Assembly (NCBI RefSeq): GCF_988243305.1
Contig: NZ_OZ547136.1
Reading direction: 5' to 3' (one strand)
DNA: 64,000 nucleotides
The notes under the pieces were generated by a model. The model worked only from the letters and a program-made list of their open reading frames with translations. It was not told the DNA's origin and made no database searches. Each line of letters opens with the position of its first letter. Position 1 is the stretch's first letter. Made by a program: the position numbers and the translations under genes. Positions 29,320 through 64,000 of this stretch are shown in pieces.

Positions 29320-31105
<1,786 letters not shown>

Positions 31106-31192
31106 ATTCACCCCGAATGTTGTTATGTCTGTTTGCAGTGTAGAGCCATTGTTTGTAAACACAAAAACAACTCCGCTACATCTTATTCTTAT

Positions 31193-31744
31193 TTAATATA
31201 TATCAGAAGCAGGCAGGCTGGAGGATTTCTGCACAAGTCCGGTACACGTTTGACGCTGATAGTGTTGATACTTCCGTAACGCAATGCGGTAATTGTTGGT
31301 GCTGGTGGTGGGCAGCCACGGGGCGAGGATTTCATCAAGGAAACCGTCCTGCAGCTGATCGAGGGAAATATTTTGCTCGTGTAGATGATTACCCAAACGG
31401 CGCAGACGAACGACATATTCACGCACCGTACCTGGGCTCATTTCAGTTTGTTCAAAAAGAAATTGCTTAAAGCCGATAATATCGAAAAAATCACTTTGCG
31501 TTTTGCAATGTAAATCACCGCAGAATCGGCACAATGCCGCCCATGATTTTTGTTCCACTTGCCAGCCATTTTCATCAAGCAGCATGTCCAGGCGGGAAAT
31601 CTCGATTTTATTCACTATTTTGCCGTCGCGAACGAGGGTAATGCGGTCGAGTAATTTACGGCAATGCGCGCAATGAGTCTGGCTGTGTTTAAAGTCTTTA
31701 AGATAGCGGCTTAATGGCCGTCTTTTCAGGTGCTGCACCATCAT
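31193..31744 (-). CDS. fliZ: regulator FliZ
   Basis: MMVQHLKRRPLSRYLKDF... 183 aa. Confidence 0.9.
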   Translation of the reverse strand: MMVQHLKRRPLSRYLKDFKHSQTHCAHCRKLLDRITLVRDGKIVNKIEISRLDMLLDENGWQVEQKSWAALCRFCGDLHCKTQSDFFDIIGFKQFLFEQTEMSPGTVREYVVRLRRLGNHLHEQNISLDQLQDGFLDEILAPWLPTTSTNNYRIALRKYQHYQRQTCTGLVQKSSSLPASDIY

Positions 31745-31789
31745 TAAGAACTCCTGGTAGTCAAAATTAAAGTGCGGCATTTACTGACG

Positions 31790-32509
31790 TTATAACTTAC
31801 CCAGTTTAGTGCGTAACCGTTTAATGGCCTGGCTGTGTAACTGACTGACCCGCGATTCCCCGACCTCCAGCACCGCGCCAATCTCTTTGAGATTCAGCTC
31901 TTCCTGGTAATAGAGGGTTAATACCAGTTTTTCGCGCTCCGGCAACGTTTCGATAGCTTCCATCACCCGCTGGCGCAGATTACTGTCCAGCAGCTGTTGT
32001 AGCGGGTTTTCTCGCTGATGATCATCAGTAACCAGTTCAATGCTATCGCCGTGCTCTTCGCGCCACTCATCGTAGGAGAAGAGCTGGCTGTTATTGGTGT
32101 CGAGCAACATTTGGCGATAATCGGCAATATCGATCCCTAAACGTTCCGCTACCTCAGTTTCCGTGGCGTTACGGCCAAGTTCCTGCTCCAGTTGCCCTAT
32201 TGCCTGTGCCACTTCACGCGCGTTGCGTCGCACGCTGCGCGGCACCCAGTCACGGCTGCGAAGTTCATCCAGCATAGCGCCACGTATACGCTGCACTGCG
32301 TAAGTTGTAAATGCCGTTCCTTGTAGGGCGTCATAGCGTTCGACGGCATTAAGTAACCCAATGCCGCCCGCCTGTAGCAGATCGTCAAGTTCCACGCTCG
32401 CGGGCAGTCGAACCTGCAGGCGCAATGCTTCGTGACGCACCAGCGGGACATAACGCTGCCACAGCGAGTGTTTATCCATTACACCTTCAGCGGTATAGAG
32501 TGAATTCAC
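31790..32509 (-). CDS. fliA: flagellar sigma factor sigma-28
   Basis: 239 aa. Confidence 0.95.
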   Translation of the reverse strand: MNSLYTAEGVMDKHSLWQRYVPLVRHEALRLQVRLPASVELDDLLQAGGIGLLNAVERYDALQGTAFTTYAVQRIRGAMLDELRSRDWVPRSVRRNAREVAQAIGQLEQELGRNATETEVAERLGIDIADYRQMLLDTNNSQLFSYDEWREEHGDSIELVTDDHQRENPLQQLLDSNLRQRVMEAIETLPEREKLVLTLYYQEELNLKEIGAVLEVGESRVSQLHSQAIKRLRTKLGKL

Positions 32510-59613: not shown

Positions 59614-61012
59614 GTTGTGCCTCTTGCTGACGCAACGCCACCGCCTGTTTGATTTTTGGCTCAAGCAGTTTTGCCACCGCGGCAAAGACCGGCACGACCA
59701 CCGAGTTACCGAACTGGCGATAGGCCTGAGTGTCCGAAACCGGAATGCGGAATTTCGCTTCTCCCGGCGCTTCAAAACCCATTAAGCGCGCGCATTCCCG
59801 AGGCGTTAACCGACGTGGACGATGTTGCTGATTCAGCGGATCGTCAAAGTCTTTCTCACCTTTGGCCATATCCCAGCCGCGATCGATTAAAATTTCCGCG
59901 CCATCTTTGTAATAACGCGCAGACAGCGTACGCGTGACGCTTTGCGGATTGTTCGGATAAACCATTCCATAACCGAAGCCGTTACCGCGCGCCTGATGTT
60001 TTTTCGCATATCGATAGAGGTACTTCCACAGCACCGGCGTCAGGATATATTTCGCCTCGACCATCGGGTCCAACAGCTGCGCCAGCGTCACTCGCTGTGC
60101 AGGGAAACATTCGCTGATATCACGCAGAGTAAAATCGGCTTTCAGATTAAGATCGCGACGAAAACCCACCAGCACGATGCGTTCACGGTGCTGCGGCAGA
60201 AAATGTTTACCATCGATGATTTTCGGATCGTCCGGCCCGTTATCTTCTGCATCAGCCACGTCATAGCCCAGTTCGTCCAGCGTCTGCATGATGATGCGGA
60301 ACGTTTTACCCTGGTCGTGACTTTTCAGGTTTTTGACGTTTTCGAGCACAAACATCGCCGGACGACGCGCGTCGATAATGCGTACCACATCAAAAAACAG
60401 CGTGCCCTGGGTATCGCAGGCAAAACCGTGCGCCCGCCCGAGCGAGTTCTTTTTCGATACGCCAGCCAGCGAAAATGGCTGACAAGGGAAACCGGCCAGT
60501 AAAACATCGTGTTCAGGAATGTGTTGACGAATATGTTCCGCCGCCGCCTCATCACTCACGCCTTCTTTATGGCTGAGGGTGATATCGCGGATATCTTCAT
60601 TAAAATGATGCGTCGCCGGATCGCAATAATGGTTGGCTTTATAAGTGCGTACCGCATGTTTGTTCCATTCGCTGGTAAACACGCATTGTCCGCCAATCGA
60701 TTCAAAACCGCGACGGATGCCGCCAATTCCGGCAAATAGATCGATAAAGCGAAACGCATAATGCGGATGATGTGCCGGTGGTTTGGGTAACAACGTTTGC
60801 AGATGGGCGAACTCTTTCTCACTTAAACGGTGCCATGCCGAGTCATTCGCCAGCGCACGTTTTAAAATTGCCGCGCTCCAGTGATTCTCACCCACACCAT
60901 TAAGCTGCGCCACCAGCGTTTTAACATCATAAATTTGCAGCAGTTTCTCCAGCATTGCCTGTGCGGCATTCCCGGTGCTGTATGAATCGGTTACTGATAT
61001 ATTTTCCTGCAT
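59594..61012 (-). CDS. dcm: DNA-cytosine methyltransferase Dcm
   Basis: 472 aa, FAGIGG and PCQ motifs. Confidence 0.95.
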
Positions 61013-61078
61013 AGATTTAACCGGCCATCTGAGATGGCCGACAGGTTAACATAATTACAGCCATTTAGGGCCACGCGC

Positions 61079-61774
61079 TTATCCCGCGGGTGAAAACGCA
61101 TCTATCACCTTGTGATCGACACCTTCATTCTCCCCCGCCAGTTCGGCACTGAGCTTCGCCATAAACTCGACTAAAAAATGCGCGTTGTGCTGCGCCAGCT
61201 GCTTGCCTCTTGCGGTTTGCATGGTTTGCGGTAGCTTCAGCAACTTAGTCTGGAAATGATCCAGCGCGTAGCGTTTATCATCAAGCGGGCGATGCTGTGC
61301 GAACGGATCTTCACCATCAAACAGCGCCACGCCCAATGCCCCTGAAACGGCAAACACGCGCGCCAGGCCAATCGCCCCCAGGGCTTCCAGCCGATCCGCA
61401 TCCTGGACGATTTTAGCTTCCGTTGTTAAGGGGGCGATTTGCGCGCTGAAACTGTGAGCGGCAATGGCATGACAAACGGCCTCGATTTTCTCCGCCGGAA
61501 ATTGCTCGAACTCTTCACGGAGCAGGCGACGCGTCTCTTCTGCCGCCAGGATTGAAGAACGCTGCCTTTGCGGATGATTTTTCGCCAGGCTCACAATATC
61601 GTGAAAATAACAGGCGGTTAAAATCACCAGCATATCGACATCGTCATCTGCCGCCAGCTTCTGTGCCGTAGCCCAGACGCGGCGAAAATGACACACGTCA
61701 TGGGCCGCGTCCTGGTGCTGATGATGGTTTTTCAACCAGTTTTCGAACTGTGCCTGCCAGTGTTGTAAGTCCAT
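61079..61774 (-). CDS. yedJ: HD-domain phosphohydrolase YedJ
   Basis: 231 aa. Confidence 0.9.
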
Positions 61775-61813
61775 ACGCGCTCCGTTGCCAAAGAGTCGCC
61801 ACCTTAGCAGTTT

Positions 61814-62180
61814 TTATTCATAGCGTCTGCTACGTGCGGGACGAGGTCGGGTGTACCAGGCAATGCTGCCTAACAATGCCCCGACCAGAGCCATAAATAA
61901 AAATCCGACCAGTGCCCCTAACCACTTTCCCGCGGTAGAGCCTAAATCGCTTTTCAAATCCCGACACCGGGGCATCAGGGATCCGGCTCATCACCCAGAT
62001 GTAACGCGCCATTGCCCAGACGAAATAGCCACACCATGTATAGAAAGCCCACAAAGCCAATTTGCCGCCAGGGCTGCGAGAGAGTCTCTCTTCCATCTTT
62101 GTCGAACCGTATTCCATTTTGAGATAACCCGGAAAATTCAGACATAGTACTATTATGTGATAAAAGTCACATTTTTCCAC
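61814..62180 (-). pseudogene. yedR: yedR with apparent +1 frameshift in an A/T homopolymer (possible pseudogene or sequencing error)
   Basis: N-terminal part through ...PVSGFE is in one frame; the hydrophobic C-terminal helix SDLGSTAGKWLGALVGFLFMALVGALLGSIAW...RRYE* is in the +1 frame after tttt at 61951-61954. Confidence 0.6.
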
Positions 62181-62745
62181 ATTGGATGAGCCAGTCAAGA
62201 CTCAATCATTTTTTGAACAAATAGATAAATTTTGCGCAACGGCAATAATTACTGGAAAAACAGCAATAAAGATTTATTTATATCCTTGGTAATAGTTTTA
62301 TTAATTCACCCAAACAATATATTAGCACTGAATACAATTATACCTTTTTTGATTTCTGTGTCATGATAACCCCGTTATTAGCCTTTTATCGTCTTGTTTA
62401 TATTTTTTGGGCCGGCATGATGCCGGCTTTTTTTATACCTTCATTAATGTGCGCGTGATCACGCCTGCCGTTTGGCGCAACAATCATTGATACTCCCTAT
62501 CTTTCCATTCAACTCATAACATATTGATATACATTTATAATTTTCATGAATGTTTATATTTAGAATTCATAATTCTGAATTATATTAAATAGATTAGAAA
62601 CATTTTGAAATCTTTTAAATACATTTGTTACATGTAATCCTTAAAATAAAATGAACTTCATAGAATAGTATCCAAATGTGCTTTTTTTTGGATAACGGCA
62701 CTTATTGATATATTCATGAAGATTATAATCACAAGGGAATACATA

Positions 62746-63933
62746 ATGAAAAGAAAAGTTCTGGCAATGCTGGTCCCGGCGTTATTAGTTGCTGGCGCAG
62801 CAAATGCGGCTGAAGTCTATAATAAAGATGGTAATAAACTGGATTTGTACGGAAAAGTAGCGGGCCTGCACTACTTCTCTGATGATGCTGGCAGCGATGG
62901 CGACATGTCATATGCCCGTATCGGTTTCAAAGGTGAAACTCAGATCGCTGACCAATTCACTGGTTATGGTCAGTGGGAATTTAACATTGGCGCAAACGGT
63001 CCTGAAAGCGACAAAGGTAATACCGCAACGCGTCTGGCATTTGCAGGTTTAGGCTTTGGTCAGAATGGTACTTTCGACTATGGTCGTAACTACGGTGTCG
63101 TATATGACATCGAAGCATGGACCGATATGCTGCCAGAATTTGGTGGCGATACCTATGCTGGTGCCGACAACTTCATGAACGGTCGTGCTAATGGTGTTGC
63201 AACCTACCGTAACAATGGCTTCTTTGGTCAGGTCGATGGCCTGAACTTTGCTCTGCAATATCAGGGTAATAATGAAGATGATGGATTATTCGGTCAGGAA
63301 GGTTCTGGTAACGGTAATGGCCGTAAGTTAGCTAAAGAGAACGGCGACGGCTTCGGTATGTCCACTTCCTATGACTTTGACTTTGGTTTAAGTCTGGGCG
63401 CTGCTTACTCTAACTCTGACCGTACCGACAATCAGGTTCACAAAGGTACTCATAACACTCGTTATGGAGATCGCTTCGATGCAACTGCTGGCGGTGAAAC
63501 AGCAGAAGCATGGACCGTTGGTGCTAAATACGACGCTAATAACGTTTACTTAGCAGCTATGTATGCTGAAACCCGTAACATGACTGGTTACGGTGATGCT
63601 GATGCGATCGCTAACAAAACCCAAAACTTTGAAGTTGTTGCTCAGTATCAGTTCGACTTCGGTCTGCGCCCGTCCATCGCTTACCTGCAATCTAAAGGTA
63701 AGGATTTAGGCGGTGTAAATAGTGATAACTTCGACAGCCAGGGCAATCATCATTACACCAACAAAGATCTGGTTAAATATGTTGATATTGGTATGACCTA
63801 CTACTTCAACAAAAACATTTCCACCTACGTTGATTACAAAATCAACCTGCTGGACAACGACGACGACTTCTACAAAGAAAACGGCATCGCTACCGATGAT
63901 ATCGTAGCTGTGGGCTTAGTCTACCAGTTCTAA
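62746..63933 (+). CDS. yedS: outer membrane porin, OmpC/OmpF/PhoE family (yedS position), intact
   Basis: Signal peptide [21 protein letters not shown] then [17 protein letters not shown]..., C-terminal ...VGLVYQF; AT-rich upstream region. Confidence 0.8.
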
Positions 63934-64000
63934 TCAGCCAACGCGCCGCGGCGTGTTACTGTAAAACTTAACAATAGCCTGAGTTCGTCCCTCATCGAAC

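Follow-up and report, generated by a model that had tools for sequence, protein, structure and literature searches.

Insertion of one base into drpB (yedR) leaves a frameshifted pseudogene on a rare Escherichia coli haplotype

Introduction

The cell division protein DrpB of Escherichia coli K-12, formerly YedR, is a bitopic-hairpin protein of the divisome with a length of 100 amino acids (Yahashiri et al. 2020, PMC7648144). Its two transmembrane helices flank a periplasmic loop of ~20 residues, both termini lie in the cytoplasm, and conservation is strongest where transmembrane helix 2 ends (PMC7648144). Translation starts at an ATG counted as codon 22 in the older annotation; this start is experimentally supported, and the promoter was mapped between this codon and the old GTG start at codon 1 (PMC7648144). 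Deletion of drpB alone causes little or no phenotype, and the gene is non-essential (PMC7648144). Residues 48–57 are required for suppression of an ftsEX deletion, and T89 is required for activation of the Rcs response (PMC11709261).

Here we describe a drpB locus with a frameshift in a 64,000 nt stretch (in the following called the window) of contig NZ_OZ547136.1 from RefSeq assembly GCF_988243305.1. In window coordinates, the ATG at codon 22 (ATG-22) lies at 62117 and the old GTG start (GTG-1) at 62180, with the gene on the minus strand. A first-pass annotation made from the sequence had noted an apparent frameshift in yedR here and left open whether it was a pseudogene or a homopolymer sequencing error.

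Results

The drpB locus and the position of the insertion

Among 5,426 complete E. coli genomes, 4,910 match a segment of 601 bases around the site. All of these have it annotated as drpB, “cell division protein DrpB”, adjoining yedJ, which agrees with the first-pass assignment of the gene to yedR. The gene order of a yedS-type porin gene, drpB, and yedJ-dcm-vsr is common to strains JE86-ST05, K-12 J53, and W619, and the window is collinear with it. The window and K-12 have drpB at the same locus, flanked by the yedS-type porin gene and yedJ, with the same promoter region, the same first 55 residues and 98% identical DNA. They differ in a short run of A residues on the coding strand, which consists of three bases (A3) in K-12 and of four (A4) in the window, and in the C-terminal part including transmembrane helix 2, which is intact and in frame only in K-12. 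The features of the locus are as follows.

62152–62179, minus strand: predicted promoter-like site TGGAAA-16-CATAAT, between GTG-1 (62180) and ATG-22, in the region of the mapped promoter (PMC7648144)
61814–62117, minus strand: drpB (yedR) pseudogene from the ATG-22 start (62117–62115, PMC7648144) to the ancestral TAA (61816–61814); 304 nt compared to 303 nt in K-12; the identical allele is called “frameshifted” by the annotation pipeline PGAP
61953–62117, minus strand: intact 55 N-terminal codons (MEYGST...PVSGFE), encoding the cytoplasmic N-terminus, transmembrane helix 1 and most of the periplasmic loop
61951–61954, minus strand: A4 run with the one-base insertion (ancestral A3), spanning codon 55 (GAA) and codon 56, from the alignment with K-12
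61830–61952, minus strand: tail of 40 out-of-frame codons (KRFRLYRGKVVRGTGRIFIYGSGRGIVRQHCLVHPTSSRT) and the stop codon TAG at 61832–61830, from translation, composition and hydropathy
61814–61951, minus strand: ancestral C-terminal 45 codons (SDLGSTAGKWLGALVGFLFMALVGALLGSIAWYTRPRPARSRRYE, then the stop codon) with transmembrane helix 2 and T89, which the insertion has moved to the +1 frame and separated from the N-terminal part

The first-pass extent of the gene, 61814–62180, ends at the ancestral stop codon, but its start is the legacy GTG-1; the supported start is ATG-22 at 62117 (PMC7648144).

The minus strand reads gatttgaaaagcgatttagg from 61960 to 61941, which places the four-base run, T on the plus and A on the coding strand, exactly at 61951–61954. 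The coding strand of drpB in the window has GGATTTGAAAAGCG at this point, compared to GAAAG in K-12. When the window was aligned with K-12 J53, this extra A (GAAAAG instead of GAAAG) was the sole indel in 400 bases. The four-T run had been proposed as the junction between the two frames, and the alignment confirms this position.

Translated in a single frame, 61814–62180 on the minus strand gives VEKCDF...MEYGSTKMEERL...PVSGFE, followed by KRFRLYRGKVVRGTGRIFIYGSGRGIVRQHCLVHPTSSRT and a stop. The hydrophobic C-terminus, ending in ...GKWLGALVGFLFMALVGALLGSIAWYTRPRPARSRRYE before the stop codon, is found in the +1 frame within an open reading frame (ORF) of 53 codons at 61814–61975. Both the translation and the list of ORFs thus agree with the earlier observation that the N-terminal part up to PVSGFE and the hydrophobic C-terminal helix lie in separate frames. 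Starting from ATG-22, 55 authentic residues are followed by 40 out-of-frame residues and the TAG stop at 61832–61830, yielding a product of 95 amino acids. When one A was deleted in silico, the exact full DrpB of 100 amino acids was recovered, so the in-frame continuation is an out-of-frame translation, as had been suspected.

Parts of DrpB kept and lost in the shifted product

We compared the different translations to the DrpB equivalog profile NCBIfam NF038392, which has a curated cutoff of 50 bits (PF28000:DrpB is the Pfam family listed in the contig index). The shifted product scores 81.4 bits, above the cutoff, but matches profile positions 1–58 of 86 only, whereas DrpB repaired in silico reaches 151.6 bits over positions 1–85. 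The 53 amino acid ORF in the +1 frame (61814–61975) scores 64.1 bits over positions 46–85.

In a Kyte–Doolittle profile with a window size of 19 residues, the wild-type protein shows a peak of 2.35 at residue 77, while the C-terminal half of the shifted product does not exceed 0.38. The shifted tail is rich in arginine, with 10 arginine or lysine residues among 40, has a GRAVY value of −0.47 and lacks a hydrophobic peak. Judged by this hydropathy profile, the shifted product does not have the two transmembrane helices of functional DrpB (PMC7648144). Because transmembrane helix 2 is missing, we consider the locus to be a pseudogene of the DrpB family rather than a functional member.

The predicted product lacks transmembrane helix 2 and T89, and its periplasmic loop is missing the last residues. 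The A4 allele therefore most probably causes loss of function, likely of both known DrpB activities, as judged from the residues that are missing. The shifted product keeps transmembrane helix 1 and loop residues 48–55, so that it may have some residual or altered activity.

Occurrence of the A4 allele

The A4 allele is rare, restricted to one haplotype and present in independent data sets. A query of 78 bases across the site, representing the K-12-like local haplotype, matched 3,679 complete genomes. Three of these, JE86-ST05, JE86-ST02, and W619, contain an exact match to A4; 3,674 matches fall into the 95–99% identity band, and every match listed there is one base shorter. On the divergent B2-type haplotype, a query with the A4 inserted yielded no exact match in 1,230 genomes. 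In total, A4 occurs in three of ~4,909 complete genomes, and many of the ~4,900 others are long-read assemblies. The comparison with reference yedR orthologs that had been proposed thus gave a clear outcome: about 4,900 complete genomes have A3, the three with A4 all carry the haplotype of the window, and all three are annotated as “frameshifted” by PGAP (JL003_RS12480 in JE86-ST05, JLZ98_RS12295 in JE86-ST02 and QC808_RS09440 in W619).

[quoted passage not shown] JE86-ST02, from 1999, was assembled from PacBio RS II data and polished by Pilon with MiSeq reads, and JE86-ST05, from 2014, is a hybrid Unicycler assembly of MinION and Illumina data (PMC7366661). W619 is an isolate from a pig in Guangdong, China. 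In all three strains, drpB is like that of the window in its A4 run and in the surrounding 3.1-kb haplotype, which is identical save for a SNP at 62144.

We also searched a protein collection and metagenome assemblies. The shifted product of 95 amino acids is identical to BCA74418.1 and is the only version of the window’s ORFs in the protein collection; alternative gene calls of 122, 116, 88, and 53 amino acids had no exact match there. Three short contigs, each from a different ENA metagenome assembly, carry a gene call of 116 amino acids for the shifted protein, which departs from the corresponding call in the window at the SNP at 62144. Two of these contigs differ from the window at 62144 only, the third also by a few distal SNPs. 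A scan of metagenomes for the A4 pattern found a single contig, OAQU01000001.1 (481 kb), which matches the window with 100% identity over 4.3 kb, the SNP at 62144 included. Because this SNP is otherwise private to the window, the contig is probably the window’s own source, and we left it out as independent evidence.

A one-base difference in the length of a homopolymer is a classic type of sequencing error, and the true sequence might accordingly be A3 with an intact drpB. We judged this question on assembled sequences, including the window itself. The run is, however, just 3–4 bases long, and the same allele was obtained in a PacBio assembly polished with Pilon, in a MinION and Illumina hybrid, in an unrelated pig isolate from China and on three ENA metagenome contigs. 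Moreover, all A4 carriers have the haplotype of the window, which random errors would not follow, and none of the ~4,900 other complete genomes, many of them long-read assemblies, has A4. Because A4 recurs on one haplotype across platforms and laboratories and is absent from these other assemblies, we reject the error reading with high confidence and regard it as very unlikely; of the two possibilities raised at first, the pseudogene stands and the sequencing error does not.

Origin and spread of the allele

The strains sharing A4 differ in how far their similarity extends to either side. From 60585 to 64000, W619 has the same sequence as the window apart from 62144; from 60584 downwards, it is 1–2% divergent. 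On the other side, W619 and JE86-ST05 are ~99.8% identical for 30 kb upstream, into the ybt/irp genes. Their common block is longer than 30 kb and includes dcm from a point within the gene, drpB, the yedS-type porin gene, hchA, hprRS, msrPQ, zinT, mtfA, and tRNA-Asn, and extends into the yersiniabactin island. The window represents a further genome, distinct from the JE86 strains: it differs from JE86-ST05 by the private SNP at 62144, by nine further SNPs at 32.2–64 kb, by a patch of 48 SNPs and by a Mu-like prophage at 29497. Further carriers of the 3.1-kb haplotype, including a version with A3, were not found among complete genomes; the next-best match is 98.5% identical.

A shared block of more than 30 kb next to a flank that is 1–2% divergent points to a single origin, after which the allele spread by descent and recombination. 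Recombination of the flanking regions is a known route by which the yersiniabactin island spreads in E. coli. The simplest reading of the haplotype sharing is a single mutational origin of A4, and we infer recombinational spread of the A4 block from the same pattern.

Taken as a whole, the observations are very probably explained by a heritable, fixed drpB pseudogene that stems from one A3 to A4 insertion and was spread by descent and recombination. In this scenario, a single A would have been inserted into the AAA run at codons 55–56 of drpB in an ancestor of the haplotype. Translation from ATG-22 would since then yield the 55 authentic residues and the 40 out-of-frame residues up to the premature stop, without transmembrane helix 2 and the cytoplasmic C-terminus. 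The loss of drpB would be tolerated because the gene is non-essential. The allele would have arisen once; later carriers would have obtained it by descent and through homologous recombination involving a large block that includes the yersiniabactin island.

Other natural frameshifts in drpB

Other frameshifted drpB alleles exist, and several of their products fall into the same protein cluster as the shifted product of the window. The most frequent one has a deletion of 8 bp at codons 42–47 (around window positions 61975–61995), changing TGGGTGATGAGCCGGATTCCCGATG to TGGGGGTGAGCCGGATG and yielding a product of 42 amino acids and a downstream ORF of 72 amino acids. It is present in 74–82 complete genomes (about 2%), for example in strain W2-5, and accounts for 1,920 blocks in the index of the protein collection. 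PGAP annotates it as two “DrpB” coding sequences and not as a pseudogene. Like A4, it is a natural frameshift that inactivates drpB between transmembrane helices 1 and 2; unlike A4, it results from another mutation on another haplotype and is much more common. Its existence shows that wild strains can dispense with drpB.

In addition, we found the insertion of a G (G3 to G4) at CGCGGG of drpB in one draft genome and the deletion of a G (G4 to G3) in the O157:H7 strain FRIK804. A frameshift as a lineage trait of O157:H7 was considered and rejected: another O157:H7 strain, TR01, differs from the window by A3 versus A4 only, so the change in FRIK804 is specific to that strain or an error. Recurrent independent frameshifts fit a dispensable gene under weak constraint.

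Alternative interpretations

Rare AGG codons promote frameshifting in E. coli. In the shifted frame of drpB, the rare arginine codon AGG is codon 59 and directly follows UUU, three codons after the insertion, and the downstream +1 frame is fully intact. Programmed or leaky +1 frameshifting by the ribosome at UUU-AGG would give GFE-KRF-GSTAGKW... in place of GFE-SDL-GSTAGKW..., with the predicted junction peptide GFEKRFGSTAGK, and would restore a near-normal DrpB. However, the context GGA UUU GAA AAG CGA UUU AGG offers no re-pairing of the P-site codon after a +1 slip, since tRNA-Phe would be mismatched on shifting from UUU to UUA, and there is neither a stop codon at the site nor an AGGGGG-like or clear Shine–Dalgarno-like stimulator. 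Nor is the arrangement conserved, with more than 99.9% of orthologs in frame (shifted in three of ~4,909 complete genomes). The combination that defines a programmed +1 frameshift of the prfB type, a shift conserved among orthologs at a slippery codon beside a stop or hungry codon, with a Shine–Dalgarno-like stimulator upstream, is thus absent from the drpB site. A recent mutation is a simple explanation for the intact +1 frame, and we consider frameshifting highly improbable.

Two further readings deserve next to no credence in our view. One regards the A run as a contingency tract, in which slipped-strand mispairing would turn drpB on and off. The change indeed sits in a homopolymer, and other drpB frameshifts also occurred in short runs (the G3 to G4 change in the draft genome and the G4 to G3 change in FRIK804). 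Phase-variable homopolymer tracts are typically ~7 nt or longer, though, and a tract of 3–4 bases is far below this. Only two states are seen, with A4 confined to one haplotype and unchanged between the isolates of 1999 and 2014. A contingency locus has a long tract that varies in length among close relatives; here it measures 3 or 4 nt. The other reading is a split gene, in which the N-terminal fragment and the 53 amino acid ORF starting at ATG 61975 are both made and form a functional DrpB in two pieces. This ORF begins with an ATG in the +1 frame, encodes the complete transmembrane helix 2 and C-terminus, reaches 64 bits with the DrpB HMM, and has a parallel in the two DrpB coding sequences given by PGAP for the 8-bp-deletion allele. 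Yet the internal ATG is preceded by a weak GGA only, six bases upstream, its position inside the upstream ORF precludes coupling of termination and reinitiation, and an arrangement of this kind follows automatically from a frameshift. A more speculative view, which we think has a slim chance of being correct, combines several of these elements: A4 would not be a null allele, as low-level +1 slippage at AGG or the separate halves would supply some DrpB activity, and the recurrent disruption of drpB (A4, the 8-bp deletion and the indels in G runs) would reflect selection for a lower DrpB dosage instead of neutral decay. Such selection is conceivable because overproduction of DrpB triggers the Rcs and Psp envelope-stress responses.

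The A4 version of drpB is an ordinary lineage-specific pseudogene, and the same allele is already flagged in RefSeq genomes. In the window, drpB should be labeled as a pseudogene (frameshifted) and not be “corrected” as an assembly error. Natural strains, including Shiga toxin-producing enteroaggregative O86:H27, thus lack an intact DrpB; they are natural knock-outs, consistent with the non-essentiality seen in the laboratory. The A4 allele tags a recombination block with a link to the yersiniabactin island and might be useful as a marker for the lineage or haplotype. Beyond annotation, its significance is small.

Further observations in the window

At 62144, the window has A on the plus strand and T on the coding strand, a SNP that neither K-12, the JE86 strains and W619 nor the three ENA contigs share. 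With respect to the predicted −10 hexamer of the drpB promoter, it is located ~8 nt downstream, near the expected start of transcription, and it creates an ATG that opens an ORF of 56 amino acids at 61975–62145. We considered it as a promoter mutation and rejected this, as it is located just downstream of the predicted hexamer and outside of it.

The porin gene upstream of drpB (window positions ~62830–64000, in a minus-strand context) is annotated as “ompC” by PGAP. The JE86 strains and W619 have an intact copy of it (WP_000824408.1), while the K-12 J53 copy is a pseudogene that contains both a frameshift and an internal stop codon. We take it to occupy the position of yedS in K-12.

At the other side of the window, a Mu-like prophage with genes for the Mu transposase, a DUF935 protein, head morphogenesis and others fills positions 8000–29497. 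The collinearity with JE86-ST05 ends at 29497. In that genome, the corresponding position lies within dcyD (D-cysteine desulfhydrase), a gene that the prophage thus appears to interrupt. A 98.8% similar prophage is present in the JE86 strains at another chromosomal site. Next to the junction, on the dcyD-tcyJ-fliZ side, the segment of ~2.6 kb from 29600 to 32200 contains 48 SNPs relative to JE86-ST05, compared to nine in the following 32 kb. From its density and position beside the prophage junction, this cluster looks like a small recombination patch.
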